57,214 nucleotides of DNA, from the NCBI GenBank assembly GCA_000999465.1, contig LCGB01000001.1, positions 1-57,214 of the forward strand, in the 5' to 3' direction. A program made the translations under genes and the position numbers. Below the pieces are notes generated by a model that worked only from the letters and a program-made list of their open reading frames with translations, searched no databases and was not told the origin of the DNA. This stretch comes from Candidatus Nomurabacteria bacterium GW2011_GWB1_43_19 (GTDB lineage Bacteria; Patescibacteriota; Minisyncoccia; Phycocordibacterales; UBA9973). This document shows, piece after piece, positions 317 to 32,059 of the stretch (positions within the stretch are counted from its first letter, which is position 1; each line of letters begins with the position of its first letter).

Positions 317-1846
317 ATGAGCATGACAATAATAATTCTAATCGGAGTCGGAGTACTCCTTTTGGGCGTGGGAATCGGATACTATCTCCGTCTGATAATC
401 GCATTAGGGAAAAGAAGGTCAATTGAAATAGACATCAAACAAATGATGGTCGGCGCCAAGGAAGAAGCACAAAAAATCACCGATGAGGCAAAAAAGGAAG
501 CGGAATTAAAACTAGCGGAATTAAAAGAAGAAGAAAAGGAAAAAGAACAGGAATTCAAAGATAAGGAATTAAGGCTGATAAAAAAAGACGAGTTTCTGGA
601 CGCACGGCAAGTTGAAGTGAATAAAGAAATGGAAAATATCAAACTCAAAGTAGAAGAGGTAAAAAAAATCCAAGAAAAAGTATTAAAAATAGAAGAAGAA
701 AAAATAATAGAGTTGGAGAGAGTATCAAAATTGAGCGAAGAAGGAGCAAAAGAGGAACTCTTAAGAGATGTTGAGAAAAAATACGAGGAAGATATTCTGG
801 TTAGGATTCAAAAACTGGAAAATACCAACGAGGAGAAGTTGGATCGCCGGGCTAAAGATATTTTGGCGACCTCCATCCAGCGTCTTGCCTCTAGCACTGC
901 CTCTGAACTGATGACTACAGTAGTGTCCATCCCTAATAATGAAATCAAGGGTAAAATTATCGGAAAAGAAGGCCGAAACATTCGAGCTTTTGAAAGAGCT
1001 TCGGGCGTGGAACTTATCGTAGACGATACTCCAGGATCAATTGTCATTTCTTCTTTTGATCCTATCAGAAGGCAGGTCGCCCGTTTAGCTCTTGAGAACC
1101 TGATACTTGACGGACGCATTCAGCCGGCCAAAATTGAAGAATTAGTGGAAAAAGCCAAAGAAGAAATAAACAAAATAATCAAAGAAAAGGGAGAACAGGC
1201 GGTCTACGAGTGCGGAATATTCAATTTTGACCCGCGCATCATTGCCATCATCGGCCGGCTGTATTTCCGCACCAGTTACGGGCAGAACGTGCTCCAACAC
1301 TCCATTGAAATGGCGCACATTGCCGGCATGTTGGCGGAAGAACTCGGCGCGGACGTGGCCATCGCCAAGGCGGGCGCTCTGGTGCACGACATCGGTAAGG
1401 CGCTAGACCACGAGGTGCAAGGCACGCATGTAGAAATAGGCATGCGTATATTACAGAAATTCGGCGCGGATGAGCGCATCATTATCGCGATGAAATCGCA
1501 CCACGAGGACTACCCTTACGAAACGATAGAAGCTGTAATTGTCCAGACCGCCGACTCAATCTCCGGCGGACGACCCGGAGCCAGAAGGGACTCGGTGGAA
1601 AATTACCTGAAACGCCTGCAGGAACTGGAAGCATTGGTAAATACCTTCCCGGCTGTTGAAAAATCCTACGCGCTTCAGGCCGGACGCGAAATCCGCATCT
1701 TTGTCACGCCGGAAAAGATATCCGACGCCGAAGCCAAACTGATGGCCCGCGATATCGCCATGAAAATAGAACAAGAACTGAAATATCCGGGAGAAATTAA
1801 AGTCACAATGATCCGCGAAACGCGAATCATTGAATATGCAAGATAA
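317..1846 (+). CDS. rny: Ribonuclease Y
   Basis: 509 aa with an N-terminal TM helix, a K/E-rich coiled coil, a KH motif (GKIIGKEGRNIRAFE) and an HD domain (ALVHDIGKA...SHHED). This is the canonical RNase Y architecture. Confidence 0.9.
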   Translation: MSMTIIILIGVGVLLLGVGIGYYLRLIIALGKRRSIEIDIKQMMVGAKEEAQKITDEAKKEAELKLAELKEEEKEKEQEFKDKELRLIKKDEFLDARQVEVNKEMENIKLKVEEVKKIQEKVLKIEEEKIIELERVSKLSEEGAKEELLRDVEKKYEEDILVRIQKLENTNEEKLDRRAKDILATSIQRLASSTASELMTTVVSIPNNEIKGKIIGKEGRNIRAFERASGVELIVDDTPGSIVISSFDPIRRQVARLALENLILDGRIQPAKIEELVEKAKEEINKIIKEKGEQAVYECGIFNFDPRIIAIIGRLYFRTSYGQNVLQHSIEMAHIAGMLAEELGADVAIAKAGALVHDIGKALDHEVQGTHVEIGMRILQKFGADERIIIAMKSHHEDYPYETIEAVIVQTADSISGGRPGARRDSVENYLKRLQELEALVNTFPAVEKSYALQAGREIRIFVTPEKISDAEAKLMARDIAMKIEQELKYPGEIKVTMIRETRIIEYAR

Positions 1847-1847
1847 A

Positions 1848-1963
1848 AATCTTTGCAAATATAGCTTTTGAAGGGGGTTTTGAGCTCGACGGAGCGAAAA
1901 CTTCAGGATTTTTTAAGCTTCAAAAAATCCGTACCCGAAAAAAGCTGATATTTGCAAAGATTT
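1848..1963. repeat. Intergenic structured element: long outer stem enclosing the 80-nt two-hairpin module (copy A)
   Basis: AAATCTTTGCAAATAT-AGCTTTT (1848-1870) pairs with AAAAGCTGATATTTGCAAAGATTT (1940-1963). The enclosed module 1865-1944 recurs at 30990-31069 (67/80 identical). Confidence 0.7.
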
Positions 1964-2104
1964 CCCTCGCTATACACACCCCTTGCCTTAAAAAACCCTT
2001 GCTATATAATACTATGGTACTAGAGAGGTAGTAATTATAAGGGTAAAAAGCCGCCGCTTAGTCGGGGCAAGGTCGAAATATTACAAATTTTATCTAAAAT
2101 TTAT

Positions 2105-5206: not shown

Positions 5207-5236
5207 AGTATAAGTGAACGAGCGTTCACTTGTCAA
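5207..5236 (-). promoter_or_regulatory. Sigma70-type promoter with a LexA (Cheo-type GAAC-N4-GTTC) operator filling the spacer
   Basis: The minus strand reads TTGACA-AGTGAACGCTCGTTCACT-TATACT. The 18-nt spacer (5213-5230) is an 8+2+8 perfect palindrome containing GAACnnnnGTTC. Confidence 0.65.
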
Positions 5237-5303
5237 CTACTCCCTGTGGATAACTTTAGGTGTTTTAAAAATTACTGTCGTTAAAACATATTATAATAAA
5301 ATT

Positions 5304-5822
5304 ATGCGCTCAAAGAAGAAAGGATTTACTCTCATAGAACTCTTGATTGTTGTGGCAATCATTGGAGTGTTGGCTAGTGTGGTTTTGGCATCTCTTAATA
5401 GTGCTCGTGCTAAGGCCAGAAATGCCAACAGAATATCCGGCATCAAACAAATAATTACCGCTTTTAATCTTGCCTATACTGCTGCTTGGCCCATTAATAA
5501 TTCTGGTGCTTGGGCTTGTATTAGCGCTACTTGTTATAACGGCTTTGCTTCATATGTGGCTGTTCCAAACATAGACGCTTTTTTTACGCCCTATATGCCT
5601 TCGAAGCCCATCGACCCTGCCGGCGGATCAACTAATAGATTCGGGGGGGTTATATATAGTCAGTGGGTGGGAGGTACCAGCCCATATGATGGACATATTG
5701 AACCTGCGGGAAATTACATTTATTGGGCGGTTGAACCTCCACTGACTCCGACCTCTTGCGGTCCCGGAAAGATTTGGAATGCGGGAGCGGATTCCGTTAA
5801 CTGTCATTTTAATTTTGAGTAA
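5304..5822 (+). CDS. Type IV pilin-like protein (prepilin N-terminal methylation motif)
   Basis: Internal ATG at 5304 gives MRSKKKGFTLIELLIVVAIIGVLASVVLASLNSARAKAR. This is a class III signal peptide with G-F-T-L-I-E, and I prefer it to the 5214 start in the ORF track. Confidence 0.8.
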   Translation: MRSKKKGFTLIELLIVVAIIGVLASVVLASLNSARAKARNANRISGIKQIITAFNLAYTAAWPINNSGAWACISATCYNGFASYVAVPNIDAFFTPYMPSKPIDPAGGSTNRFGGVIYSQWVGGTSPYDGHIEPAGNYIYWAVEPPLTPTSCGPGKIWNAGADSVNCHFNFE

Positions 5823-6238: not shown

Positions 6239-7828
6239 TCACTGCGTGACCTTCGGGCGGTATTGAATGGCTTCCAGGATATGATTGGACTCCACTTCGG
6301 AAGAACTTTCCAGGTCGGCGATGGTGCGGGCAATTTTAATGACCCGGTGGTAGGCGCGGGCGGAAAGACCCAAGCGTTCGGCGCTGTCGTCCAGCAGGTC
6401 CCGCACTTTCAGGGAAAGTTTGACCATGGAGGACAGGTCTTTCACATTCATTTCGCTGTTGGTCTTTTTTCTACCAGAGGCGGATCCACCTTGGGCGGAA
6501 AATCTGTTTTTTTGAATTTCCCGCGCTTGCATTACCCTCGCTTTTATTTTTTCGCTCCGCTCGCCGTTTCCTTCTCCGCCCAATTTTTTATAGTCCACAT
6601 TTCCAACCGATACCCATAAATCAATGCGGTCCATTATTGGTCCGGATAATTTTCTTCTATAGCGGTCTAGGTCGGAGGGCTTACAGACACATTCTTTCTT
6701 TTTACTGCCCAAATTTCCACAAGGACAAGGATTCATGGCCGCGACTAGGATGAAATTGGAGGGAAAAATAGCCGTGCCTTTGGCGCGAGAAATTGAAACA
6801 ATATTGTCTTCAAGCGGCTGGCGGAGCGATTCTATTACCCTCTTTTCAAATTCCGGAAATTCGTCCAGAAACAAAACTCCGCGGTGCGCCAGCGTCACTT
6901 CTCCCGGCTTCGGAAAAGTTCCCCCGCCGATAATCGCCACATAAGACGAAGTATGATGAGGGGCGCGGAAGGGCGGAAAGCAAACGAGTTCTCCTTCCAG
7001 GTTTCCGGCCACCGAATGAATGCCGGTTATTTCAAGAACTTCTTCCATACCCAAATCCGGCAAGAGTTGCGAAAATGCCCGCGCCAGCATCGTCTTACCG
7101 GTGCCCGGCGGACCATACATGGCAATATTGTGCCCGCCGGCCGCCGCAATTTCCAGTCCGCGCTTGGCGCCTTCCTGTCCGCGAACATCGGAGAAATCCC
7201 CGTCTTTTGTTCCCTTTTTGTAACTGATTGCTGTTTTCGGCTGTTGAGGTATTTTCGTTCCCGACGCTCTAACTTTGTTGGAGGTCGGGACCCCGACCCT
7301 TTTGGGCGTCGGGGCAAGATGCTCCGCCACTTCTTTCAAACTGCTGGCTCCGAAAACTTTTATGCCTTCAACCAGCGCTGCCTCTGCCGCATTTTCTTTC
7401 GGCAAATATATTTCTTCAAAACCGAGCCGTCTGGCCTCTTGAGCGAGCGGCAGGGCGCCGCGAATTCGGCGGAGTGTGCCGTCCAACCCTAGCTCGCCTA
7501 GGAAAATCTTTTTCTCCGAATTGAATTTGATGTCTCCCGAGGCGAGCATATACGAGAGCGCGATGCCGAGGTCAAAAAACGGCCCCTCTTTTTTTAAATC
7601 GGCCGGCGAGAGTGATACTATTATTTTCTGGTTCTGCGCTTTGGGAGATTTGTAACCGGAATTTTTTATTGCCCCGCTGACGCGGTCTTTGGATTCATCC
7701 ACCGCTTTATCCGGCAAGCCGACAACATTAAAAGCGTGAAGTGTTCCTTTGGAAATATCCACCTCAATCGTTACGATGGCGCCCTTAAGCAAATTAACTT
7801 GCGCCGAATAAACTTTTGCAAAGCTCAT
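6239..7828 (-). CDS. comM: Mg-chelatase-like AAA+ ATPase ComM/YifB
   Basis: 529 aa with an N-terminal Lon-protease-like domain, Walker A GPPGTGKT, Walker B LFLDEF and a C-terminal Mg-chelatase subunit ChlI-like domain. Confidence 0.9.
   Translation of the reverse strand: MSFAKVYSAQVNLLKGAIVTIEVDISKGTLHAFNVVGLPDKAVDESKDRVSGAIKNSGYKSPKAQNQKIIVSLSPADLKKEGPFFDLGIALSYMLASGDIKFNSEKKIFLGELGLDGTLRRIRGALPLAQEARRLGFEEIYLPKENAAEAALVEGIKVFGASSLKEVAEHLAPTPKRVGVPTSNKVRASGTKIPQQPKTAISYKKGTKDGDFSDVRGQEGAKRGLEIAAAGGHNIAMYGPPGTGKTMLARAFSQLLPDLGMEEVLEITGIHSVAGNLEGELVCFPPFRAPHHTSSYVAIIGGGTFPKPGEVTLAHRGVLFLDEFPEFEKRVIESLRQPLEDNIVSISRAKGTAIFPSNFILVAAMNPCPCGNLGSKKKECVCKPSDLDRYRRKLSGPIMDRIDLWVSVGNVDYKKLGGEGNGERSEKIKARVMQAREIQKNRFSAQGGSASGRKKTNSEMNVKDLSSMVKLSLKVRDLLDDSAERLGLSARAYHRVIKIARTIADLESSSEVESNHILEAIQYRPKVTQ
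6472..6498. repeat. GGATCC-centred double-hairpin element, degenerate copy inside comM
   Basis: TACCAGAGGCGGATCCACCTTGGGCGG, which in gene sense encodes SAQGGSASGRKK. It belongs to the same family as 11183, 21800 and 31497. Confidence 0.75.
7260..7313. repeat. Intragenic alternating CCCGAC/GTCGGG hairpin cluster in the comM linker
   Basis: Units are CCCGACGC (7260), GTCGGG (7284), CCCGAC (7292) and GCGTCGGG (7306), which can form nested or tandem hairpins. The cluster encodes part of the variable linker PTPKRVGVPTSNKVRASG. Confidence 0.5.
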
Positions 7829-7834
7829 GGCCTT

Positions 7835-7917
7835 TAGCTAGTTATAAGGTAAAAAGTTTGTAAAGTTTGTAAAGCATTTTTCTTTATGAACTTGATGACT
7901 TTATGAACTTTTAACTC
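7835..7917. repeat. AT-rich imperfect palindrome built from AAGTTnnTAAAG-type units (site 1)
   Basis: AAGTTTGTAAAGTTTGTAAAG faces CTTTATGAACTTGATGACTTTATGAACTT, between the comM start and the dksA-like stop. Related sites are at 22748, 37564 and 38708. Confidence 0.55.
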
Positions 7918-11172: not shown

Positions 11173-13368
11173 TTAATTATTTCCGCCCGAGGCGGATCCG
11201 CCTTTGGCGGAGAAGAAATTTTTATCCGCTTCTTTGATGGACAGGCCGATTCTGCCTCTTTCCAGGTCAATATTTATAATCTTCACCGGCACAATCATGC
11301 CTTCTTTTATTATACTGCCAACATTCTCCACGCGCCATGGCGCTATTTCGGAAATATGCACCATGCCATCGATGAAATCGTTTAACCGCACAAAGGCTCC
11401 GAAGTCGGCGACTTTCACGACTTCACCCTTGAGCATTTCACCTACCTGAAATTCGCGGGTCATTTCTTCCACGATTGCCTTGGCTTTCGCGGCCGAATCG
11501 TCCCGGCCAGTCAGATAAACAGTGCCGTCGTCCTCAATGGTTATTTCCGCTCCCGTCCTTTCCTTTATATCTTTGATAGTTTTTCCTCCCCCGCCGATGA
11601 CCAGTCCGATTTTATCCGGATTGATTTTGATTATCAAAATTTTCGGAGCATTGGGGGAAATATTCGCCCGCGGTTTCGGAATTTCTTTTTCAATCCTATC
11701 TAAAATGGCCAGCCGCGCGGATTTCCCCTGTTTCATCGCCTCGCCCAGTATTTTTATCGGCACGCCCTCCACCTTCACATCAAGCTGGATGGCGGTAACG
11801 CCGTTCCGGGTGCCGGCAATTTTGAAATCCATATCACCATAATGATCTTCCGGTCCCTGAATGTCGGTCAAAATTTTATATCTGTCATCGGACTCGTACA
11901 TTAGACCCATGGCAATGCCGGCCACCGGCGCCTTAATAGGCACACCGCCGTCCATCAGAGCCAGAGTAGAAGCGCAGATTGATGCTTGAGAAGTGGAACC
12001 GTTGGAAGCCATTGACTCGGAAACAATCCGGATGGTGTACGGAAATTCCATCGCCGTTGGCAGCACCATCTCCAGTGCTTTTTCGGCGAGGGCTCCGTGT
12101 CCGACTTCCCGGCGGTTAGTAAATCCGGCCCGGCCCACTTCTCCGGACGAGTAAGGGGGGAAGTTGTAATGATGCATGAATCTTTTTTCTTCTTTGAGCT
12201 GCAACCCGTCAACCAAATTCCTGTCTTCCGGTCCGCCCAAGGTCAAAACCGAGAGGACATGCGTCCCTCCGCGGTAGAAAATTCCCGAACCGTGGAGAAT
12301 GCTGGAGAGTTCCCCGGCTTGCGCGTAGAGGTCGCGAAGTTCATCCATCTTCCGGCCGTCGGCGCGCTTGTTTTGCTCTATCGCGCTCTTATGCAGAATA
12401 TCGTTTTCCGTATCGTCAAACAAATCGTCTTCCAGGGCAAAGTCCTCTCGGTCCGGGAATTTTTCGCTGTAGTATTCTCTTGCCAAATTGTTCCAAGTAG
12501 TATGTAAGGCATCTATTTTTTCTTTGCCCGCCTCTGCGTGGCCGAAGCCCGCTTCGGCGAGGCGAAGGCCCGCTTCTCCGAAAAGCGCTTCTTCTATGTG
12601 AGGCAGGATGTTTTCGTTAAATAAAATGACAGATTCGGGAGAAATCGTTTCTTTTTCTATTGCTCTTTTCTCTTTCCCTATTTCAGCCATTATTTTCTTC
12701 TGAAAATCCTCCAGTTTGGCTATTTCCCGGCTGGCTTCTTCCAGCGCCGCTTCCAGTTCCGCCTCGGCGATTTGGTGAGCGGACGCCTCAATCATATTTA
12801 TCTTGCCGTCTTTGCCGCAGACCGTCAGGTCAAATTTATAGGGCGCATCGTCTTCCAGGCGCAAGGACTGTGGAGGGTTGATTTGGAGTCCATTGCCGTC
12901 ATACTTGCCGATACGCACGCAGCCGATGGGGCCATTCCAAGGAATATTAGAAACGGAAAGCGCCAAGGATGCGGCGTTTACCGCTAAAATTGTCGGGTCG
13001 TTATCGTCAACGGAAAGAACCGTCACAATTACCTGTACCGCGTGACGAACCGACTGATCAAAAAGCGGGCGCAGGGTACGGTCTATCACCCGGCTGGCCA
13101 AGATGGCCTCCTCCGACGGCTTGCCTTCTCGGCGGACAAAACGGGAGCCGAGAATTTTTCCGGCCGCGTAAAACTTTTCCGTATAATCAACCGTCAGATT
13201 GAAGTATCCTAAACCCTGCTGTTTATCCTTGGACATGCAGGCGGTGGCCAAGACAATCGTCTCTCCGCATTTCAGGATTACCGAACCATGCGCCTGTTCC
13301 GCTAAGTCGCTAAAAACGGCCGTTAAAGTTTTGCCTCCGATTTCCACGCTATACTCTTTTTTCTTCAT
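11173..13368 (-). CDS. pnp: Polyribonucleotide nucleotidyltransferase (PNPase)
   Basis: Two RNase PH domains, KH (GGGGKTIKDI) and S1 (GEVVKVADFGAFVRL). I prefer ATG at 13368 (MKKKEYSVEIGG) to the TTG at 13389. Confidence 0.9.
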   Translation of the reverse strand: MKKKEYSVEIGGKTLTAVFSDLAEQAHGSVILKCGETIVLATACMSKDKQQGLGYFNLTVDYTEKFYAAGKILGSRFVRREGKPSEEAILASRVIDRTLRPLFDQSVRHAVQVIVTVLSVDDNDPTILAVNAASLALSVSNIPWNGPIGCVRIGKYDGNGLQINPPQSLRLEDDAPYKFDLTVCGKDGKINMIEASAHQIAEAELEAALEEASREIAKLEDFQKKIMAEIGKEKRAIEKETISPESVILFNENILPHIEEALFGEAGLRLAEAGFGHAEAGKEKIDALHTTWNNLAREYYSEKFPDREDFALEDDLFDDTENDILHKSAIEQNKRADGRKMDELRDLYAQAGELSSILHGSGIFYRGGTHVLSVLTLGGPEDRNLVDGLQLKEEKRFMHHYNFPPYSSGEVGRAGFTNRREVGHGALAEKALEMVLPTAMEFPYTIRIVSESMASNGSTSQASICASTLALMDGGVPIKAPVAGIAMGLMYESDDRYKILTDIQGPEDHYGDMDFKIAGTRNGVTAIQLDVKVEGVPIKILGEAMKQGKSARLAILDRIEKEIPKPRANISPNAPKILIIKINPDKIGLVIGGGGKTIKDIKERTGAEITIEDDGTVYLTGRDDSAAKAKAIVEEMTREFQVGEMLKGEVVKVADFGAFVRLNDFIDGMVHISEIAPWRVENVGSIIKEGMIVPVKIINIDLERGRIGLSIKEADKNFFSAKGGSASGGNN
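11183..11210. repeat. GGATCC-centred double-hairpin element, copy at the pnp C-terminus
   Basis: CCGCCCGAGGCGGATCCGCCTTTGGCGG, the exact reverse complement of 31497-31524. It encodes the terminal SAKGGSASGGNN* of PNPase. Confidence 0.85.
12541..12576. repeat. Intragenic tandem hairpins in pnp (GAAGC-CC-GCTTC units)
   Basis: GCCGAAGCCCGCTTCGGC followed by GAAGGCCCGCTTC. They encode LRLAEAGFGHAEAG in the variable inter-domain helix region. Confidence 0.45.
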
Positions 13369-20117: not shown

Positions 20118-20612
20118 TTACGGATACAAAACTTCATAGAAGCCGGCCGCAGGAGTAGGCACGGAGCCCCATGTATACGGCGTAATCTGGTAAGCGGCCG
20201 TTTCAAAATATACTCCAAGCTTCGGCGTACCGTCGGGATACCCTGTATAGAAATAAATATCTCCTTGAGGACCCACAAGGCTACAAGTTGAGGAGAGATA
20301 AGGAATAAGACCCCCGTCTCCTCCTGTCCCGCAAGGCGGGTATCCGGTTGTACCGGCATAATTATTGTCACTAATCCAATAGACCGTATCGTAACTTCTG
20401 GCAGGATAATAGCCGTGGTCATTATAATACAATTCTAAAGCATTTTTTATAGACCGGATATCGCCAAGGCGTCGCGCGTCGCGCGCTTTGGCTCGCGCGG
20501 AATTAAGAGAAGCCAAAACCACACTAGCCAACACTCCAATGATTGCCACAACAACCAAGAGTTCTATGAGAGTAAATCCTTTCTTAAAATTTATCTTAAA
20601 AACTGAATACAT
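20118..20612 (-). CDS. Type IV pilin-like protein (second paralogue)
   Basis: 164 aa with KKGFTLIELLVVVAIIGVLASVVLASLNSARAKAR. The N-terminal coding DNA is 82/84 identical to pilin 1. Confidence 0.8.
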   Translation of the reverse strand: MYSVFKINFKKGFTLIELLVVVAIIGVLASVVLASLNSARAKARDARRLGDIRSIKNALELYYNDHGYYPARSYDTVYWISDNNYAGTTGYPPCGTGGDGGLIPYLSSTCSLVGPQGDIYFYTGYPDGTPKLGVYFETAAYQITPYTWGSVPTPAAGFYEVLYP

Positions 20613-20619: not shown

Positions 20620-22230
20620 TCATGTACTATTTTTTCTTACTCCGTGTTTAGTATGCAACTTCTCAATCTCTTGCTCTTCTAAACTTTCTTTTTTCTCTTT
20701 TCCGCGCTCGCCCAGGGTCCGGAGCTCCGCATCGCCCAGCACATTGAGCGATTTCGTCAGTTCCGAGAGATGCTCTACTGTATTTTTCTCCGGAGCGTCC
20801 AGGATTTCTTCCAAAAGCGCGTGCAAAATCCATCCCATCCTCGGTCCCGGCTTAATCTCTAGTTCTTTTATCATAAATTCTCCGTCAATTTTCAGTTGGC
20901 CGACGGAAATCGGGTCCCGCAAGGCCTCTTCAATCATCGCGAAATACTTGCGCAGGCGGTAGGGCACTTCTTTTTTCTTCATTCCCACCCGATCACATTC
21001 ACGGACATTCATTAAGAGCCAGATATTCTCCACACTGACTTTAGTGATGATCCTCCGCACGGCCGAGAGCGTAATTAACTCCGTGTCGGAGAAGAACATA
21101 TGGTTACGGACAAGCTTTTCCACCAGTTCGGTCTCCTTTTTCGAGAACCGGAGCCGTTCCATTATTTTTTTCGCCATCCGCGCGCCGATAACCTCGTGGC
21201 CGTAGAATGTGTATTTCTTTTTTGAATTTATTTTCGGAGCCGGATGTGCAAAATCGAGTCCGTGTCGGAGCCCGCTTGCGGGTAAAGCGGCGAGATTTTG
21301 CATATCCGACGAAGAATTAGCATTTCTTCTACTTCTCGGCTTCCCGATATCGTGAAAAAGCGCCGATAACCTTATTTCTAAAGGCCATTTCTTGTCCGCC
21401 GCATGCTGGACGGCATGGAGTAAATGCTCCCAAACGTCATAGATATGCTCCCCCAGTTGTTCGCAACCCACCCCTTCCAGAAGCTCCGGAATGGTATTTT
21501 TCAGCAAGCCGAGCTTCTGCAACATAACAATTCCGCTGGCTGGATTGTCCGACATGATTATTTTTACAAACTCGTCCCGAATCCGCTCAAAGGATATTTT
21601 TTGGAGCAAGTCGGCATTTTTTAAAATACTTTCGGTTGTTTCATACGACACAGAAAAGTTAAGTTGGCAAGCCAAACGGACAGCCCGCAGCATGCGGAGC
21701 GCATCCTCGGTAAACCGGTCATCCGGATTGCCTACTGCTTTTAACGTTTTATCTTGGATGTCCTTTATGCCCCCGAAAAGGTCAACTATCTGTCCTTTTC
21801 CGCCTGAGGTGGATCCGCCTTTGGCGGAAGAGTTCAATGCGAGGGCATTAATAGTGAAATCACGTCTTTTAAGGTCGTCTTCCAGCTTGTCGCTGAACTT
21901 TACCTCATCCGGATGTCTAAAATCGCTATATTTTGCCTCAATTCTATAGGGGGTAACCTCAACGACTCTTAATGTTTCTTGTGAAACATCTTCCTGAATA
22001 ACAGCGACTGTTCCAAAGGCATTCTCATATACTGTCTTTTTAAACAGGGAGATAATTTCCTCCGGTTTGGCATTGGTTGCGACATCCCAGTCCTTAGGTT
22101 CTGTTCCCATTACAAGGTCGCGGACGCATCCGCCGACCAGATATGCCTCAAAACCCGCTTTTTCAAGTGTGTCTGTTACATGTGAAACTTCTTTGGGTAT
22201 TTTTTTTATTAAACTGTTGATGTTTTCCAT
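20620..22230 (-). CDS. cca: CCA-adding enzyme / poly(A) polymerase family with HD domain
   Basis: 536 aa with the nucleotidyltransferase motif LVGGCVRD...DWD, RRDFTINA and HD-domain LFHDIGKP. It carries two palindromic insertions. Confidence 0.85.
   Translation of the reverse strand: MENINSLIKKIPKEVSHVTDTLEKAGFEAYLVGGCVRDLVMGTEPKDWDVATNAKPEEIISLFKKTVYENAFGTVAVIQEDVSQETLRVVEVTPYRIEAKYSDFRHPDEVKFSDKLEDDLKRRDFTINALALNSSAKGGSTSGGKGQIVDLFGGIKDIQDKTLKAVGNPDDRFTEDALRMLRAVRLACQLNFSVSYETTESILKNADLLQKISFERIRDEFVKIIMSDNPASGIVMLQKLGLLKNTIPELLEGVGCEQLGEHIYDVWEHLLHAVQHAADKKWPLEIRLSALFHDIGKPRSRRNANSSSDMQNLAALPASGLRHGLDFAHPAPKINSKKKYTFYGHEVIGARMAKKIMERLRFSKKETELVEKLVRNHMFFSDTELITLSAVRRIITKVSVENIWLLMNVRECDRVGMKKKEVPYRLRKYFAMIEEALRDPISVGQLKIDGEFMIKELEIKPGPRMGWILHALLEEILDAPEKNTVEHLSELTKSLNVLGDAELRTLGERGKEKKESLEEQEIEKLHTKHGVRKNST
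21241..21308. repeat. 68-nt imperfect palindrome inside the cca HD domain
   Basis: CGGATGTGCAAAATC...(inner CCGCTT-GCGGGTA-AAGCGG)...GATTTTGCATATCCG. It encodes an extra segment between HDIGKP and FYGHE. Confidence 0.65.
21800..21827. repeat. GGATCC-centred double-hairpin element, copy inside cca
   Basis: CCGCCTGAGGTGGATCCGCCTTTGGCGG, which in gene sense encodes SSAKGGSTSGGKG. Confidence 0.85.
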
Positions 22231-22240
22231 TGAACTTTTG

Positions 22241-22312
22241 TGCGCCCGGCAAGACTCGAACTCGCAACGACGGTTCCGAAGACCGTTGTGATATCCATTT
22301 CACCACGGGCGC
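22241..22312 (-). tRNA. tRNA-Arg (anticodon TCG)
   Basis: Manual cloverleaf: acceptor GCGCCCG/CGGGCGC, D stem GTGA/TCAC, anticodon arm ACGGT-CTTCGGA-ACCGT, T arm GCGAG-TTCGAGT-CTTGC. No CCA is encoded. Confidence 0.85.
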
Positions 22313-22460
22313 AAAAATTACTTAATAATGTATATACTTTACACTATTTAAATATAAATGGCAAATAACCTTTATTTTACAAACTGATTCTACAATTGCA
22401 TTAATTGTTTAAAAATAATATAATAGATAAGCTTTTTTAAAAAAGAAGAATAAAAAAATT

Positions 22461-22534
22461 GCGGTCATGGTTTAGTGGCAGAACAACTGGTTGCCAATCA
22501 GTTGGCGGGAGTTCGATTCTCCCTGGCCGCACCA
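22461..22534 (+). tRNA. tRNA-Gly (anticodon GCC), CCA encoded
   Basis: Acceptor GCGGTCA/TGGCCGC, anticodon loop TTGCCAA, T arm GGGAG-TTCGATT-CTCCC, 3' ACCA. Confidence 0.85.
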
Positions 22535-22747
22535 ACATATGTCCTTTATAACACCACCTCGTTGCTTATTAAATATAAGGATTTTATTTAAAAATGTGGA
22601 TAACTATGTTAGTAATGTTTATAAAGGACATTTTTTAAGATAGTGTTTTGCGAGCTATTTTGTCTAAAATACGTTGTGAAATAAGGATATTTTTATAAAA
22701 GACATCAAATTGACTAAAAAGGTTTCACGTGAAACACTGCATGGTTA

Positions 22748-22836
22748 AAAGTTATCAAGTTCATAAAGTTCTTAAAGTAAAATATTCGTTAACCCAACTT
22801 TATAACTTTCTACTTTATAAACTTTAAAAACTACTT
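22748..22836. repeat. AT-rich imperfect palindrome of AAGTTnnTAAAG units (site 2)
   Basis: AAAGTTATCAAGTTCATAAAGTTCTTAAAGTAAAA faces CAACTTTATAACTTTCTACTTTATAAACTTTAAAAAC, immediately upstream of yraN. Confidence 0.55.
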
Positions 22837-22839
22837 AAA

Positions 22840-23250
22840 ATGCCAAAAGTATTTACATCGGAAACACAAAAGACCGGGGAAATTGGAGAAAATATCGCTG
22901 TAAGGTTTCTCGTGAAACGGGGTTTTTTAATTTTAGACAGGAATTACACTAAAAAATGGGGGGAAATAGACATAATTGCCGAAAAGGCCGATAAAATATA
23001 CTTTGTTGAGGTTAAAAGTGTTTCTTCCTTTAACATATCTCAGAACGTTCCACATGAAACATCCCTTGGTAGACCAGAAGATAATATGCACCCCTGGAAA
23101 CTGAAACGACTGTCGCGCGCCATTCAAACCTACCTTTTGTCTAAGAAAATAGCGGAAGAAAAAGAATGGCAAGTTGATCTTTTGGTTGTCTTTTTGGATT
23201 TAAAAAGCAAGAAAGCCAGGGTAAAAGTGGTAAGAGATATTGTTTTATAG
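22840..23250 (+). CDS. yraN: YraN-family (UPF0102) endonuclease-like protein
   Basis: 136 aa with GEIGENIAVRFLVKRGFLILDRNY..GEIDIIAEK...YFVEVKS, the typical YraN PD-(D/E)XK core. Confidence 0.8.
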   Translation: MPKVFTSETQKTGEIGENIAVRFLVKRGFLILDRNYTKKWGEIDIIAEKADKIYFVEVKSVSSFNISQNVPHETSLGRPEDNMHPWKLKRLSRAIQTYLLSKKIAEEKEWQVDLLVVFLDLKSKKARVKVVRDIVL

Positions 23251-23252
23251 TG

Positions 23253-23323
23253 TGCGGGATAGGGGAATCGAACCCCTGTCCACAGTTTGGAAAACTGTTA
23301 TTTTACCATTAAACTAATCCCGC
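23253..23323 (-). tRNA. tRNA-Gly (anticodon TCC)
   Basis: Acceptor GCGGGAT/ATCCCGC, anticodon arm ACAGT-TTTCCAA-ACTGT, T arm AGGGG-TTCGATT-CCCCT. Confidence 0.85.
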
Positions 23324-23368
23324 CTTCGCTAAAGCTTCGGCGGGCAGGCCCGCTTGGGCTTCAACTTG

Positions 23369-23439
23369 TCGGGCCGCTGGGAATTGAACCCAGTCTAAAT
23401 GCTCCCAAAGCACTTGTACTACCGGTATACTACGGCCCG
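23369..23439 (-). tRNA. tRNA-Pro (anticodon TGG)
   Basis: Acceptor CGGGCCG/CGGCCCG, anticodon loop TTTGGGA, T arm CTGGG-TTCAATT-CCCAG. Confidence 0.85.
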
Positions 23440-23495
23440 TTATGGCTTAAAAACTGAATTATCTTAACATAAAAAAGATAAATATTCTACTTCAT

Positions 23496-23523
23496 TTGAC
23501 AAAAAGTTTTTTTATTGTAGTAT
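23496..23523 (+). promoter_or_regulatory. Near-consensus sigma70 promoter for the small GC-rich ORF
   Basis: TTGACA (23496-23501), a 16-nt spacer, then TAGTAT (23518-23523), about 20 nt upstream of AAGGAGG-N4-ATG. Confidence 0.5.
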
Positions 23524-23543
23524 CAAAAACGAAAGGAGGCACC

Positions 23544-23705
23544 ATGGCAACGTCGTTGTCCGGAGGGGGGCAAGAAACCCCCCCACTGAAACCGCCGTCC
23601 AAATCGTGGACGGTGGCAAAGAGGGTTCTGCTCGTTGTTGCATTCGCGGCCCTCGCGGTCGCTGGGATCCTGGCTGGTGTGGCGATCTACGCGCTGGCTG
23701 GCTGA
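23544..23705 (+). CDS. Small single-TM protein (53 aa) encoded by an anomalously GC-rich mini-cassette
   Basis: AAGGAGG lies 4 nt before the ATG. The product is MATSLSGGGQETPPLKPPSKSWTVAKRVLLVVAFAALAVAGILAGVAIYALAG, followed by a strong terminator. Confidence 0.55.
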   Translation: MATSLSGGGQETPPLKPPSKSWTVAKRVLLVVAFAALAVAGILAGVAIYALAG

Positions 23706-23709
23706 TCAA

Positions 23710-23758: not shown

Positions 23759-23806
23759 ATGGCAAAATTTTGCAAATAATTTTTATTTGGTATACGATAA
23801 GCACAC

Positions 23807-28883: not shown

Positions 28884-30971
28884 GTGGTGACCGACAACGC
28901 ACATCACTTAAGCGGCTTAAATAACGAACAAAAGGAAGCGGCGCTTCATATGAAGGGTCCGCTTCTTATTGTGGCCGGCGCGGGCGCGGGAAAAACCAAA
29001 ACAATAACGCACCGAATTGTAAATCTAATCAAAAACGGGGTGGCGCCGGAGAAAATTTTGGCCGTAACTTTTACCAACAAGGCGGCCAAGGAAATGCGGG
29101 AGAGAATTGTCTCGGAAATAGAAAAGAACGCAAAAGGACAGGACAGAATTCCATTTATCAGCACTTTTCATTCTTTGGGGGTCCATATTATCAAGGAAAA
29201 TGCCCGGCTGCTCGGGCTGACCAAATATTTCACCATTTTGGACGAAGGGGATTCAACTTCAATGATAAAAGAAATAGAAAAAGAGCTCGGTCTGGACCTG
29301 AAACAATACGACCCGAAAAGGATAAAAAACATAATCGCGCGCGAGAAGGGAAAATTCACGCATCTGGCGGACTATGCGGAAAGAGAGAAGGGGACGCTGG
29401 GCAGAATCGTCAGCCAAATCTGGGGTCCGTATGAAAAAAGAAAAACAAAGGAGAACGCGCTTGATTTTGACGACTTGCTCCTGAAAACGACCAAACTGCT
29501 CCAAGACAATACGGAAATCAGAAAAATTTATCAGGAAAAATGGGAATACATTCACGTAGACGAATACCAGGACACCAACGAAGTGCAATATCTGATGTCC
29601 AAACTGCTTTCCGAGAACAACAAAAACATCTGCGTGGTCGGAGACGCCGATCAGAATATTTATTCCTGGCGCGGGGCAAATTTGAAAAATATTTTAAGTT
29701 TTGAAAAAGATTACCCGGACGCGAAAATAATTTTATTGGAGCAAAATTACCGGTCAACGAAAAATATTCTGGAAGCCGCGAATGTTGTTATTAAAAAAAA
29801 TATCTACCGACCGGACAAGAATCTGTTCACCAATAACCCGACCGGAGGAAAAATCGGATTGTATGAAGCCCTAGATGAAACCGACGAAGCGGATTTCGTC
29901 GCGGCAAAAATTTTAGAAACAGCCGAAGCCGTCCATGAAGGACAAAATGTTTTCGAGCGAAGCATTGCGCAGGCTGGCGAGCCGAGCATAGCAATTCGCC
30001 AGCAGGCGAATATGCGCGCTGAGTCCGAGAATATTTTGTCCGAAATAGCAGTTCTTTACCGCGCCAACTTCCAGTCGCGCGCGCTTGAGGAGGCGATGCT
30101 CCGGCACAACATTCCATACCAGGTTTTGGGAGTAAAATTTTTTGAAAGAAAAGAAATTAAAGACACTTTGGCCTATCTGCGCGCGGCGCTGAACCCGGAG
30201 AGTTTGTCCGACATAAAGAGAATAATCAATTTCCCGGCCCGGGGCATCGGCAAAGTGACCTTGGCGAAAATTTTCGCCAATGATACGGAAAATCTGCCAA
30301 TAAAAACAAAAATCAAAATTAATAATTTTTACGGAGTATTGGAAGAAATAAAAGAAAAAGTAAAAACAGAAAAAGCGAGCCGAGTAATAAAATTTGTGGT
30401 GAAACATTCCGGCATTGAACGGGAGCTTTCAGAAGGCACGGAAGAAGATACGGAAAGATTGGAGAATGTAAAAGAACTGGCAACTCTGGCGCTCAAATAT
30501 GACGACTTGGCAAATGGACTTGGTGTTGAAAGGCTTTTGGAGGACGCATCACTTGCTTCCGACCAAGATTCTTTGATAATAAATTCGGCCAGTTCCGTTA
30601 GAGGCCGCGAGGACCCGCAGCGTGCTCTTGCCTCTAACGGGGTGAAGTTAATGACAGTGCACGCTTCCAAGGGGCTTGAATTCAAATATGTTTTTGTTGC
30701 CGGCCTGGAAGACAGACTTTTCCCCCACGAGCGAAGAAATGAAGACAGCCCTGCCTCCGCCGGTGGCTACGGCGAGGCGCAGGAAGAGGAACGCCGGCTT
30801 TTCTATGTGGCGCTCACGCGCGCAAAAGAAAAGTTGTTTTTGTCTTTTGCCAACTTCCGCACCATTTTCGGAGCGCGCAACATAAATGCTCCCTCGGAAT
30901 TTATTAACGACATCCCTGCAGGCCTGTTAGAAAAAGAAGGCGAGCATGGAGTAAAAACAATTTATATATGA
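28884..30971 (+). CDS. pcrA: UvrD/PcrA-family ATP-dependent DNA helicase
   Basis: GTG start, 695 aa, with AGAGAGKTKTI, VDEYQDTN, VGDADQNIYSWRGA, QNYRST, VHASKGLEF and YVALTRA. Confidence 0.9.
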   Translation: MVTDNAHHLSGLNNEQKEAALHMKGPLLIVAGAGAGKTKTITHRIVNLIKNGVAPEKILAVTFTNKAAKEMRERIVSEIEKNAKGQDRIPFISTFHSLGVHIIKENARLLGLTKYFTILDEGDSTSMIKEIEKELGLDLKQYDPKRIKNIIAREKGKFTHLADYAEREKGTLGRIVSQIWGPYEKRKTKENALDFDDLLLKTTKLLQDNTEIRKIYQEKWEYIHVDEYQDTNEVQYLMSKLLSENNKNICVVGDADQNIYSWRGANLKNILSFEKDYPDAKIILLEQNYRSTKNILEAANVVIKKNIYRPDKNLFTNNPTGGKIGLYEALDETDEADFVAAKILETAEAVHEGQNVFERSIAQAGEPSIAIRQQANMRAESENILSEIAVLYRANFQSRALEEAMLRHNIPYQVLGVKFFERKEIKDTLAYLRAALNPESLSDIKRIINFPARGIGKVTLAKIFANDTENLPIKTKIKINNFYGVLEEIKEKVKTEKASRVIKFVVKHSGIERELSEGTEEDTERLENVKELATLALKYDDLANGLGVERLLEDASLASDQDSLIINSASSVRGREDPQRALASNGVKLMTVHASKGLEFKYVFVAGLEDRLFPHERRNEDSPASAGGYGEAQEEERRLFYVALTRAKEKLFLSFANFRTIFGARNINAPSEFINDIPAGLLEKEGEHGVKTIYI
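29940..30041. repeat. ~100-nt imperfect palindrome inside pcrA
   Basis: Outer arms GGACAAAATGTTTTCG / CGAGAATATTTTGTCC and inner arms GCTGGCGA / TCGCCAGC. It encodes an extra ~35 aa before the conserved IAVLYRANFQSR. Confidence 0.6.
30595..30640. repeat. 46-nt hairpin insertion inside pcrA (CCGTTAGA termini)
   Basis: CCGTTAGAGGC - 24 nt - GCCTCTAACGG (perfect 11-bp arms). It encodes SVRGREDPQRALASNG just before LMTVHASKG. Confidence 0.65.
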
Positions 30972-32059
30972 AACTCGTCGAAGATACAACTTTTGGAGGG
31001 GGTTTGCCGAGCGACGGCGAGGCAACTTCAGGATTTTTTAATCTTCAAAAAATCCGTACCCAGAAAAAGTTTGTACCGAGAAAGAGTTTAGGGCAAAATT
31101 TTTTAAAATCGGAACCGGCTTTAAAAAAAATTATTGAGGCGGGAGAAGTAAAAAAGGACGATATAATTTTGGAAATCGGACCGGGCAGGGGCAAGCTGAC
31201 GGAAAAACTTTTGGAGCGCGCCGGGCTCGTCATCGCCGTGGAAAAAGACCGCGAACTTTTTGAGTTTTTGAAAACAAAGTTTGAGAAAGAAATAGAAACA
31301 AATGCTTTTGTGTTAATTCATGGGGACGTATTGAATTTTGATGTTCGCGAAACAATTCTCAAATTTTTCTCAGGTCCTCGGATTTCCGGGTCCCTATCCC
31401 GGCCAGACCATTCGAAAAATTTAGAATTGCTTCGCTATAAAATCATCGCCAACATTCCTTACAACATTACCGGAGCGATACTTAGAAAGTTTTTGTCCGC
31501 CAAAGGCGGATCCGCCTCGGGCGGAAAAAAATTTCTGACCGCCCGGAACCAGCCGGAGCGGATGGTGTTGATGGTCCAGAAAGAGGTGGCTGAAAGAATT
31601 CTTGGCAGGAGAGAAAATATTTCATACTCAAAACCTAGCCATGGCAGAAAATTGGGTAAGGAAAGTATATTATCTATTTCCGTCAAGGCCTACGGGGAGC
31701 CCAAAATGATAATGAAAGTGCCGGCGCGATATTTCTCCCCGACGCCGCAAGTAGACTCGGCGGTGATTTTGATAAAAAATATTTCTAGGAAAAATTTTGA
31801 AATCCCAGCCCAGCCCTCCCCAAAGGAGAGGGAGAGATTTGGAGCCTCCCCTTTTGGGGGAGGTATGGAGGGGGTAAATGAAGAAAGATTCTGGAAAATA
31901 GTAAAAGCGGGCTTTGCGCACAAGAGAAAAAAACTCTCCGGCAACCTGAAAAACCTTGTTTCTTTGGAAAAAACGAACTTGGCGGTTTTTAAAGACAAAA
32001 GGGCGGAGGATTTATCCCTTACGGACTGGATTTTACTGGCCCGCACACCTAATTTATAA
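30968..32059 (+). CDS. rsmA: 16S rRNA (adenine1518/1519-N6)-dimethyltransferase RsmA/KsgA, expanded by repeat insertions
   Basis: SLGQNFL, LEIGPGRGKLT, IIANIPYNITG and a C-terminal helical domain. It is 363 aa (family members I recall are ~260-290 aa). ATGA overlaps the pcrA stop. Confidence 0.85.
   Translation: MKLVEDTTFGGGLPSDGEATSGFFNLQKIRTQKKFVPRKSLGQNFLKSEPALKKIIEAGEVKKDDIILEIGPGRGKLTEKLLERAGLVIAVEKDRELFEFLKTKFEKEIETNAFVLIHGDVLNFDVRETILKFFSGPRISGSLSRPDHSKNLELLRYKIIANIPYNITGAILRKFLSAKGGSASGGKKFLTARNQPERMVLMVQKEVAERILGRRENISYSKPSHGRKLGKESILSISVKAYGEPKMIMKVPARYFSPTPQVDSAVILIKNISRKNFEIPAQPSPKERERFGASPFGGGMEGVNEERFWKIVKAGFAHKRKKLSGNLKNLVSLEKTNLAVFKDKRAEDLSLTDWILLARTPNL
30990..31069. repeat. 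80-nt two-hairpin module, copy B (inside the rsmA 5' coding region)
   Basis: 67/80 identical to 1865-1944. The hairpin GGATTTTTT-7nt-AAAAAATCC is conserved, and the first hairpin differs by paired substitutions. Confidence 0.75.
31497..31524. repeat. GGATCC-centred double-hairpin element, copy inside rsmA
   Basis: CCGCCAAAGGCGGATCCGCCTCGGGCGG encodes SAKGGSASGGKK. It is 28/28 identical to the pnp copy in gene sense. Confidence 0.85.
31814..31863. repeat. CCCTC/GAGGG + CCTCCCC/GGGGAGG double hairpin inside rsmA
   Basis: CCCTCCCCAAAGGAGAGGG then CCTCCCC-TTTT-GGGGGAGG. It encodes PSPKERERFGASPFGGGMEG. Confidence 0.65.

Follow-up and report, generated by a model that had tools for sequence, protein, structure and literature searches.

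The window analysed here is a stretch of 57,214 nucleotides from Candidatus Nomurabacteria bacterium GW2011_GWB1_43_19 (GenBank assembly GCA_000999465.1, contig LCGB01000001.1, positions 1 to 57,214 of the forward strand). It carries two copies of an 80-nt module: copy A (1865-1944), which lies between rny (RNase Y) and hup (HU), and copy B (30990-31069), which lies within the rsmA ORF, downstream of a uvrD/pcrA-type helicase gene (Table 1). Patescibacteria have some of the smallest and most streamlined bacterial genomes and almost nothing is known about their non-coding elements. We compared the two copies in detail and gathered related copies from other loci (identified below by L numbers), creating a collection of 120 loci, all of them Patescibacteria, and an alignment (A1) of 117 distinct copies.

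Table 1. Features of the window associated with the two copies, with predicted structural elements (P, paired helix; J, junction strand). L123, L124 and L125 are loci compared at rny.
Position (strand)	Feature	Support
317..1846 (+)	rny (RNase Y); copy A lies in its 3′ flank	Pfam RNase_Y_N, KH and HD domains
1847..1963 (+)	Copy A, complete hairpin element, starting 1 nt after the rny stop codon (TAA 1844-1846)	MFE fold −48 kcal/mol, z −8.3; covariance model score 103 bits, E = 5e-32
1847..1869 (+)	Copy A, P1 5′ arm: locus-specific outer part plus the inner CTTTT	Pairs with 1940-1963: 22 Watson-Crick pairs and 1 bulge
1870..1875 (+)	GAA strand of the 3x3 GAA/GAA internal loop (partner 1937-1939), followed by GGG, which closes P1 with CCC 1934-1936	A1 columns 11-16 and 76-81; G16-C76 invariant in 117/117
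1876..1878 (+)	Junction strand J1/2, GGT	Invariant in 117/117 copies
1879..1900 (+)	P2 (hairpin 1): 9 stacked positions, tandem G.A/A.G at 1882-1883/1896-1897, GACG loop at 1888-1891	All 9 pairs covary; 64 haplotypes; loop GACG 77, GTCG 22, GGCG 14
1901..1905 (+)	Junction strand J2/3, CTTCA	YTTCA in 116/117 copies, part of it fixed by the search pattern
1906..1930 (+)	P3 (hairpin 2): GGATTTTTT-AAGCTTC-AAAAAATCC	Compensated variants in copies found by covariance model (GGATTTTTC/GAAAAATCC, GAATTTTTT/AAAAAATTC, AGATTTTTT/AAAAAATCT); type B stems such as GCAAAAATTC/GAATTTTATGC also occur
1931..1933 (+)	Junction strand J3/1, GTA	Fixed by the search pattern in A1; GTA in L124 and in inverted L123, which were reached through Rny and not through the DNA pattern; GGA or GTG in type B
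1940..1963 (+)	Copy A, P1 3′ arm	A homologous right-arm-like sequence is all that remains at the empty orthologous site in L125
2105..2377 (+)	hup (HU) downstream of copy A, with its own promoter-like −35 at 1983-1988 and −10 at 2005-2010	Pfam Bac_DNA_binding; promoter block conserved in orthologous loci
28884..30971 (+)	uvrD/pcrA-type helicase; its stop overlaps the rsmA start (ATGA)	Pfam UvrD-helicase and UvrD_C
30968..32059 (+)	rsmA ORF, 363 aa; the Pfam RrnaAD match begins at residue 38, after the element-encoded part	116/120 homologues lack the N-terminal extension
30971..31089 (+)	Copy B, complete element with 'class ii' arms (AAACTCGTCGAAG... / ...CCGAGAAAGAGTTT), translated as RsmA residues 2-41	Covariance model score 95.9 bits; arms shared with about 17 other loci
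31004..31025 (+)	Copy B P2, with the tandem G.A/A.G shifted to 31009-31010/31019-31020	The same shifted register occurs in 18-19 of 117 copies
31031..31055 (+)	Copy B P3, loop AATCTTC	

Copies A and B are 67/80 identical, and the 33-nt conserved part of the module occurs twice in the window against 0 expected in 100 shuffles. The 13 differences fall at module positions 7, 17, 18, 19, 21, 22, 29, 31, 33, 34, 53, 73 and 74, so that 9 of them lie in positions 15-36, rather than the ten counted in the initial annotation. That annotation's pairing register for hairpin 1 (i with 51−i) is right: pairs 17/34 and 22/29 both change from T-A to G-C, the tandem G.A/A.G sits at 18-19/32-33 in copy A and at 20-21/30-31 in copy B, and the GACG loop and its closing C-G pair are unchanged. 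Hairpin 2 differs by one loop base (G to T). Frames 0 and 2 of the + strand are stop-free in both copies, and copy B lies in frame 2 of the rsmA ORF. The outer stem of copy A (1848-1870 with 1940-1963), initially described as 23 bp, consists of 22 Watson-Crick pairs with one bulged C. Two further points had not been noticed: copy B also has an outer stem, though a weaker one (30971-30989 with 31070-31089), and the two hairpins and the outer stem form a three-way junction rather than two independent hairpins.

The two copies belong to a large, apparently undescribed family of long hairpins (median length of the whole hairpin 121 nt), scattered through ultra-small Patescibacteria genomes. In each element a long basal stem, P1, of about 25-35 bp, with outer arms that differ at every locus but stay complementary, opens into a three-way junction with invariant junction bases (GGU / YUUCA / GUA, with the limits imposed by the search pattern given in Table 1). 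The junction carries P2, a 9-position stem with a sheared-type tandem G.A, kept in one of two registers, and a GNCG loop, together with P3, an A/U-rich stem of 9-10 bp. Single-sequence folds give the same three-way junction in unrelated copies, and RNAalifold independently recovers P2 and P3.

All three helices covary. Across the 117 distinct copies, all 9 pairs of P2 change on both sides, with 348 doubly changed cells against 117 ± 16 in shuffles; 0/500 shuffles reached the observed value and every slid register collapsed. P3 also covaries once copies are found without constraining it, and is compensated in copies found by covariance model and in a diverged type B. These results support the inference, originally drawn from two copies, of selection on a folded single strand and not on coding, although the covariation does not by itself say RNA.

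A comparison with Rfam 15 revealed no known family: at gathering thresholds only 4 tRNAs pass in the whole window, while a permissive scan of 1780-2110 gave a best match of 16.6 bits (E = 2.9) to miRNA hairpin models. A hammerhead reading, which requires core strands CUGANGA / GAAA / NUH, was rejected, as the junction strands are GGU / YUUCA / GUA on the + strand and UAC / UGAAR / ACC on the − strand, the position equivalent to G8 varies G/A and the would-be GAAA varies. A twister-type reading was likewise rejected on the invariant bases. Nor is P2 a kink-turn in its canonical form, which has a symmetric tandem G.A with no 3-nt bulge, although type B copies have a 3x2 loop (GCA/GA) that could be kink-like. 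There were 0 hits in 2.9 million viral contigs, and full-text literature searches found no description of such an element in Patescibacteria.

Four orthologous copies downstream of rny keep 88-97% core identity, while rny third codon positions are 38-55% identical, so the core is under purifying selection. These orthologues differ by compensatory changes in P2 (CTC/GAG, CGC/GCG, CAC/GTG). The rny orthologue (97% core identity with L076) is more similar to copy A than is the within-genome paralogue copy B (67/80 over the module), which argues against concerted evolution.

These findings bear on the possibility that the family is purely selfish or junk palindromic DNA (MITE/RPE-like) with no host function, in which apparent conservation would reflect recent spread, horizontal transfer or gene conversion, and compensatory changes would come from DNA-level palindrome correction. 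In keeping with this view, the family is multi-copy with sub-families, shares 'class ii' arms between genomes, inserts into essential genes and shows patchy presence at given sites; in addition, template-switch correction, as in quasipalindrome mutagenesis, can create double changes without selection. However, palindrome correction would erase, not preserve, the tandem G.A (kept in about 113/117 copies) and the GAA/GAA loops, and purine-purine mismatches outnumber pyrimidine-pyrimidine ones 154 to 67 (p = 5e-9). Unpaired junction and loop bases are invariant, the one paralogous pair measured (copies A and B) is less alike than the rny orthologues are to copy A, and no viral hits suggest a vector. 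We consider this explanation unlikely.

Of the 120 copies, 115 are intergenic, and the gap between hairpin foot and stop codon has a median of +1 to +2 nt. Elements sit at the ends of housekeeping genes (rny, rpoD, nusA and genes for ribosomal proteins). Element-bearing gene pairs are 64 co-directional, 32 convergent and 9 divergent, against a background of 476/80/75 (p = 1.5e-5), a 2.4-fold enrichment between convergent genes. An A-run on the left and a T-run on the right of the foot, counted at the arm ends, occur in 52 and 44 of 120 copies, whereas the reverse arrangement occurs in 18 and 18. Only 8/100 copies are followed by a separate GC-rich terminator; downstream of rpoD the element lies between the stop codon and a canonical terminator, so there it must be transcribed.

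With moderate confidence, in the absence of transcript data and with the choice between RNA and ssDNA and the function of the cap still open, we favour a REP/RPE-like structured repeat that works in cis as a folded single strand at gene 3′ ends. On this hypothesis, the element is transcribed into 3′ UTRs or intercistronic RNA, where the long stem serves as a 3′-end hairpin, acting as a barrier to 3′ exonucleases, a terminator or insulator, or a stop-codon-proximal roadblock, as REP elements do. The conserved junction with its G.A motif would be a docking platform for a conserved host protein, while the palindromic arms would be maintained and lengthened at the DNA level by intrastrand template switching and the core inverted by recombination between the arms. 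Copy A would then be the 3′-end hairpin of rny, and copy B a copy whose arms and core have been co-opted as the first 41 codons of RsmA. However, a plain hairpin would suffice as a 3′ barrier, so this role does not explain the invariant junction, and no binding protein has been identified. An independently transcribed, trans-acting small RNA family, with the cap as scaffold and the variable stem as specificity element, would fit the conserved scaffold with locus-specific sequence, the strong covariation and the lack of a known Rfam family. Yet the variable parts are base-paired to each other and so are not free to act as guides, no conserved promoter is present (the flanks are unique and abut coding sequence), both orientations occur and some copies are in frame in ORFs, making this very unlikely.

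An RNA selected on one strand normally shows a clear G.U excess, but G.U and A.C mismatches are equally frequent, with 79 against 58 in P1 (p = 0.09) and 8 against 6 in P2, and there is no excess on the strand inferred to be transcribed (44 against 33). In co-directional gene pairs, the strand carrying the G.A motifs is antisense to the mRNA 47 times and sense 17 times (p = 2e-4), so that the usual transcript would carry C.U/U.C mismatches instead. Both strands fold almost equally well (−48 against −46 kcal/mol).

An alternative is a single-stranded-DNA element, in which the hairpin and its cap are recognised as folded ssDNA, for example on one replication-fork template, by a HUH/Y1 (RAYT or IS200-type) or other structure-specific enzyme that copies or maintains it, as in REP/REPIN-RAYT systems; the RNA would be irrelevant and the structure selected for propagation or for a DNA-level host role. 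Besides the lack of wobble asymmetry, this is consistent with conservation of the core in both orientations at one locus (L123 compared with the window), with an orientation bias relative to gene direction (which follows the replication direction implied by the GC skew in this window), with other palindromes nested in the P2 and P3 loops (L040, L061 and L120) and with arms templated from flanking DNA. Sheared tandem G.A is also stable in DNA, and in-frame ORF copies are hard to reconcile with a role at mRNA 3′ ends. On the other hand, none of the six window proteins compared with Pfam is a transposase, no target-site duplication is visible by eye at class ii copies, and copies are retained for long periods at orthologous loci under purifying selection, which selection for mobility alone does not predict. 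In the window, the two copies have opposite orientation relative to the inferred replication direction but the same orientation relative to transcription. We regard this alternative as possible but less likely.

Five copies are in frame in ORFs (RsmA and MiaA N-termini, PepN interior), always in the one orientation without stop codons. RsmA in four non-sister lineages, the MiaA N-terminus and the PepN interior all use the same strand and frame, and all three frames of the opposite strand contain stop codons. In RsmA, what had been described as a module inside the gene is really an element-encoded N-terminal extension that replaces the usual MKAKKSL start. Use of the same frame in all five ORF copies, with two + frames open, might suggest a repeat kept because it encodes a useful peptide (FxGGL..DGE..SGFFKLQKIRTxKK). 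However, in the RsmA copies the peptide varies exactly where P2 covaries (LPSDGEAT, LTSGGEPI, LASDGEPI), use of a single frame is explained by stop codons in the other frames, and this view is effectively refuted by the intergenic majority, which has no ORF. For PepN, comparison with solved M1 aminopeptidases confirms that the ORF continues on both sides of the element, but the region is too variable to delimit the insert. For rsmA, comparison of L071 with L121 (85% aa identity) revealed a replacement of about 80 nt by about 125 nt, not a simple insertion, and the window and L122 are not syntenic upstream.

The arms can extend into native coding sequence: in L002 and L091 the arm pairs the native RNY-stop codons of rpoD with an inverted copy on the far side, and RpoD ends in [RKQ]NY in 112/120 homologues. 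L123 has the core inverted between arms homologous to those of the window. The empty site in L125 can be read equally well as never filled or as a deletion between two A5 runs, the Rny trees being too star-like to polarise the change. A more speculative and rather doubtful possibility is that the hairpin is a previously undescribed class of host-maintained structured nucleic-acid element of the Candidate Phyla Radiation, in which a conserved 60-nt junction is bound by a conserved Patescibacteria protein and the stem is not carried by the element but built from whichever sequence flanks it, by fold-back or template-switch copying. This would be a new way for a repeat to propagate and to 'grow' into stop codons and even into coding sequence, and would help explain why CPR proteins such as this RsmA are riddled with palindrome-encoded insertions.

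Among known systems, Rickettsia palindromic elements (Ogata et al., 2000, 2002) appear close in behaviour, though the comparison is not one of membership: they appear to be hairpin-forming repeats of roughly 100-150 nt in a reduced genome, found both between genes and in frame inside essential protein-coding genes, adding a peptide the protein tolerates, with old copies retained at orthologous sites. In the family described here, a 60-nt three-way-junction core is nearly invariant across a whole class while the stems are locus-specific, the core is under measurable purifying selection and most copies sit exactly at stop codons.

REP, BIME and REPIN elements of Proteobacteria are likewise dispersed extragenic palindromes at gene 3′ ends and between convergent genes, vertically inherited over long periods, recognised as folded single strands and with proposed roles in mRNA 3′ protection, termination and stop-codon-proximal translation effects. 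However, REPs are simple, species-specific 20-40 nt hairpins with a conserved stem and a 5′ GTAG or CGTC tag, whereas this element has a branched conserved cap, non-conserved stems and no conserved tag at the foot, occurs in dozens rather than hundreds of copies, and has not been linked to a RAYT among the six window proteins examined.

Bacterial MITEs and structured interspersed repeats (Correia/NEMIS, ERIC, BOX, RUP, bcr1-bcr18 of the Bacillus cereus group) are also non-autonomous repeats of 100-200 nt with stable predicted folds, some showing compensatory changes and co-transcription with neighbouring genes, and some acting as terminators or RNase III sites. MITEs are defined by conserved terminal inverted repeats and target-site duplications, but here the termini are the least conserved part, except in the class ii sub-family of about 17 copies, and no duplication was visible by eye at class ii copies. 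Intrinsic (bidirectional) terminators share the position right after stop codons and, in about 40% of copies, the A-run/stem/T-run arrangement, but the stems here are long and A/U-rich, with a 60-nt branched cap instead of a 3-8 nt loop. Integron attC sites show the opposite arrangement, with conserved outer R/L boxes, a variable centre and cassette arrays next to an integrase, whereas here the centre is conserved, the ends are variable and the copies are dispersed singletons.

If functional, the family points to an unrecognised layer of 3′-end or chromosome biology and to an unknown binding protein in these organisms; if selfish, it is the CPR counterpart of the Rickettsia 'protein-coding palindromes' and a source of the many unexplained insertions in CPR proteins. 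An unfiltered covariance model search found only the two copies in the window, and a 14-17 bit hit at 50255-50329 does not look like a member. Gene callers extend ORFs through the element, which the covariance model built here would let annotators mask or label.

The two copies of the module, copy A and copy B, are identical at 67 of 80 positions, and a 33-nt pattern from their conserved half occurs twice in the window, against zero expected in 100 shuffles. The pairing register proposed in the initial annotation is correct: pairs 17/34 and 22/29 change from T-A to G-C, a tandem G.A/A.G lies at 18-19/32-33 in copy A and at 20-21/30-31 in copy B, and the GACG loop and its C-G closing pair are unchanged. 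Two small corrections are needed: nine of the 13 differences fall in positions 15-36, rather than ten as first claimed, and the outer stem of copy A, described as 23 bp, is 22 pairs with one bulge. Frames 0 and 2 of the + strand are open in both copies. A repeat search extended the similarity to 121 nt, and copy B has its own, weaker outer stem. Copy A is flanked by rny and hup, copy B by a uvrD-type helicase gene and rsmA, whose ATG overlaps the helicase stop as ATGA.

Coordinates of the repeat copies and neighbouring features in the window and in loci fetched for comparison (L numbers)
Feature	Sequence	Coordinates	Strand
Copy A, 80-nt module	window	1865-1944	
Copy B, 80-nt module	window	30990-31069	
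Extended similarity, copy A side	window	1843-1963	
Extended similarity, copy B side	window	30968-31088	
-35 upstream of hup	window	1983-1988	
-10 upstream of hup	window	2005-2010	
hup leader	window	2011-2104	
Second palindromic repeat family, four copies	window	6465-6511, 11177-11223, 21794-21840, 31491-31537	
Further hairpin-forming inserts inside rsmA	window	31334-31453 and 31778-31903	
Type B element in frame in rsmA	L122	1446-1533	
Arms of 101-nt inverted repeat	window	5316-5416 and 20485-20585	
ORF within or near which the inverted repeat lies	window	5214-5822	+
ORF within or near which the inverted repeat lies	window	20118-20612	-
Short repeats in intergenic spacers	window	7840-7915, 22743-22783, 38715-38741	
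Short repeat in uvrD-rsmA spacer	L121	843-879	
Probable replication origin	window	about 22000-23800	
Head-to-head pair of elements	L123	4903-4992	-
Head-to-head pair of elements	L123	5024-5113	+
A/U-rich insert in rpoD 3' UTR	L129	2782-2960	

To explore the distribution of the repeat, we scanned one genome per species of Bacteria and Archaea with the pattern TTCAGGATTTTTT-N7-AAAAAATCCGTA. Every named record was a Patescibacteria MAG (Nomurabacteria, Paceibacterota, Yanofsky-, Vogel- and Yonathbacteria, Minisyncoccia and some labelled Saccharibacteria), often with several loci per assembly. The same pattern had no hit in 2.9 million viral contigs, Rfam has no matching family and searches of the literature found nothing. 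Covariance models built from the copies found only the two copies in the window, but in the fetched loci they recovered further copies that the pattern had missed—up to five in one 8-kb stretch (L116). Elements can occur in dense local clusters, and also as head-to-head pairs between convergent genes (nusA and the H+-pyrophosphatase gene in L123). Truncated copies exist as well: in L024, just downstream of the rny-associated element, the complete copy is followed by a fragment matching only the 3' part of another element (AAATCCGTACCTGGAAAAA). An independently transcribed, trans-acting small RNA is in our view a very unlikely explanation for the family.

Independent single-sequence folds gave the same predicted architecture in unrelated copies: a long basal stem (P1), a three-way junction and two further stems, P2 and P3, which correspond to hairpins 1 and 2 of the initial annotation. 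The whole hairpin has a median span of 121 nt. The 60-nt core from GGGG to CC(C) is nearly invariant: junction strand J1/2 is GGT in 117/117 copies, J2/3 is YTTCA and J3/1 is GTA. Everything outside the core differs from locus to locus yet stays self-complementary, and even the inner T-run/A-run of P1 can flip, as in CTCAAAAAGGGGG...CCCTTTTTGAG in locus L057. P2 carries a tandem G.A/A.G in a CGAG/CGAG context, in one register in 93-96 copies and shifted by two pairs in 18-19 copies, copy B among them, while its loop is GACG in 77 copies, GTCG in 22 and GGCG in 14. Many P1 stems carry a 3x3 GAA/GAA loop, and overall purine-purine mismatches outnumber pyrimidine-pyrimidine ones 154 to 67.

On 117 distinct copies, all nine P2 pairs change on both sides; pair 27/35, for example, is GC in 60 copies, CG in 48, UA in 8 and AU in 1, with none broken. 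Doubly changed cells number 348, against 117 +/- 16 in shuffles, and 0/500 shuffles reach the observed value, while sliding the partners by 1-3 columns drops pairing from 87% to 31-59%. RNAalifold recovered P2 and P3 unaided. P3 was fixed by the search pattern, but copies found with the covariance models show compensated P3 variants (GGATTTTTC/GAAAAATCC, GAATTTTTT/AAAAAATTC and AGATTTTTT/AAAAAATCT), and a diverged 'type B' has the same junction plan but different stems, such as GCAAAAATTC-AGTA-GAATTTTATGC or CTGAGCT-AGCA-AGCTCAG. These cells count sequences, not events; however, there are 64 P2 haplotypes and, in addition, orthologous copies at one locus differ by compensated changes, so the signal is not merely a few sub-families copied many times.

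The element lies directly after rny in the window and in the loci L076, L081 and L024. Across these four, Rny is 91-96% identical at the protein level and rny third codon positions are only 38-55% identical, yet the 65-nt core is 88-97% identical. Copy A is closer to its orthologue in another genome (97%) than to copy B in its own genome, which is the opposite of what gene conversion among paralogues predicts. The core sequence, and not just the pairing, is therefore conserved by selection. This long-term purifying selection at orthologous loci, acting on unpaired bases, is the main tension for the selfish and mobility models, and we consider it unlikely that the element is a purely selfish palindrome.

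Of 120 copies, 115 are intergenic. The gap from the hairpin foot to the adjacent stop codon has a median of +1 to +2 nt, whereas the gap to the adjacent start codon has a median of 17-20 nt. Gene pairs with an element are co-directional in 64 cases, convergent in 32 and divergent in 9, against 476, 80 and 75 for background gene pairs in the same loci (p = 1.5e-5). An A-run to the left and a T-run to the right of the foot occur in 52 and 44 of 120 copies, the reverse arrangement in 18 and 18 of 120, and 8 of 100 elements are followed by a separate GC-rich terminator. So the elements mark gene 3' ends. Downstream of rpoD (loci L002, L091 and L130) the element lies between the stop codon and a textbook terminator, so there it is certainly part of the 3' UTR. 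In one genome (L129), the rpoD 3' UTR holds a different, A/U-rich three-way-junction-like insert at the same place, which could be a further diverged family or indicate a hot spot for such inserts. In co-directional pairs, orientation is biased: the strand on which the initial annotation wrote the module is antisense to the genes 47 times and sense 17 times (26 against 5 in a stricter set, p = 2e-4). Both window copies are in the minority, sense orientation.

Five copies lie in ORFs, all on the same strand and in the same frame; the other strand has stop codons in all three frames, as read directly from the reverse complement. Among RsmA proteins, 116 of 120 homologues start directly before the GQNFL motif, typically as MKAKKSLGQNFL, whereas the window protein and the homologues P0010, P0017 and P0045 (the last from locus L071) start M..TTFGGGL.SDGE..SGFFKLQKIRT.KKFVPRK(S/I)LGQNFL. 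These four are not each other's closest relatives, and P0045 is 85.5% identical to the element-free P0011. No start codon lies between the element and GQNFL, so the element is translated. The peptide changes where P2 covaries. The Ser of 'KSL' is AGT in the window but TCT in the one element-free locus read at DNA level that has Ser at this position (L121; L122 has Thr), so it cannot derive from a TCT codon by a single change. Together with the 'class ii' arm sequence ...CCGAGAAAGAGTTT that it shares with about 17 intergenic loci, this suggests that the arm now supplies these residues. Of the other ORF copies, L053 carries one at the MiaA N-terminus, with a perfect 19-bp arm pair starting at the ATG, and L062 carries one at residues 499-526 of an 861-aa M1 aminopeptidase that aligns to puromycin-sensitive aminopeptidase on both sides of the element. 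That the repeat is a peptide module appears highly improbable.

The window RsmA, at 363 aa against about 275-300 in homologues, carries two further hairpin-forming in-frame inserts, and in a 78%-identical RsmA (L122) a type B three-way-junction element sits in frame at the same internal position as the first of these. A second palindromic repeat family (CCGCC-NGA-GGCGGATCCGCC-TTT-GGCGGA) is also present in the window: all four copies lie inside ORFs and in frame, each encoding ..SAKGGSASGG.. in four unrelated proteins, one of them RsmA.

At the rny site the element takes three states: it is in the + orientation in the window, L076, L081, L024 and L124; inverted in L123, between arms clearly homologous to those of the window (AAATTCTTTGAAATAT against AAATCTTTGCAAATAT); and absent in L125-L128. 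Directly after TAA, L125 retains only a sequence homologous to the 3' strand of P1 plus the right arm, which fits either an unfilled site or a deletion between two A5 runs, and the Rny trees cannot decide between them. At rpoD, the hairpin in L002 and L091 pairs the native last codons (RNY-stop) with an inverted copy on the far side of the element; RpoD ends in [RKQ]NY in 112/120 homologues, so the codons are native. At least the outer arm is therefore made from the local flank. Other palindromes are nested in the P2 or P3 loops of some copies (L040, L061 and L120). G.U and A.C mismatches are equally frequent (79 against 58 in P1, 8 against 6 in P2, and 44 against 33 when oriented by the inferred transcript), and both strands fold almost equally well. 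Judging from the behaviour of quasipalindromes, these features fit DNA-level maintenance of the palindrome by intrastrand template switching and arm-arm recombination. Such correction would erase the conserved non-Watson-Crick motifs, so selection must keep those.

These analyses firmly establish a Patescibacteria-specific family of hairpin repeats capped by a three-way junction, selected for structure and core sequence. As to mechanism, we favour, with moderate confidence, a cis-acting folded single strand at gene 3' ends—a 3'-end hairpin plus a protein-docking junction—with arms maintained at the DNA level. Against this model, there is no wobble asymmetry, the G.A-bearing strand is usually the non-transcribed one and a plain hairpin would suffice as a barrier. 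A single-stranded DNA element recognised by a structure-specific enzyme, as in REP/REPIN-RAYT systems, is a possible but more tentative reading. In behaviour, the family is closest to Rickettsia palindromic elements, which are found both between genes and in frame within genes, and to REP/REPIN elements, which sit at gene 3' ends, are vertically retained and are recognised as folded single strands. We assign it to neither: no tag or terminal repeat shared by all copies is present, no duplication was seen by eye and the host range is different.

Between a conserved promoter-like block and the hup start codon, downstream of copy A, lies a leader of about 90 nt that is conserved in orthologous loci (..GGGCAAGGTCGAAATATTACAAAT..) and may be a regulatory 5' UTR of the HU gene. 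A 101-nt inverted repeat, 91% complementary and with arms 15 kb apart, lies within or near two ORFs that may be paralogous genes. The window also contains a minimum of cumulative GC skew that coincides with a switch of gene strand from mostly - to mostly + and a cluster of four tRNA genes, and this is probably the replication origin. Short repeats of the type AAGTTCATAAAGTTATAAAGT recur in intergenic spacers, including the putative origin region and the uvrD-rsmA spacer of an element-free relative (L121), and may be a promoter or a protein-binding motif.
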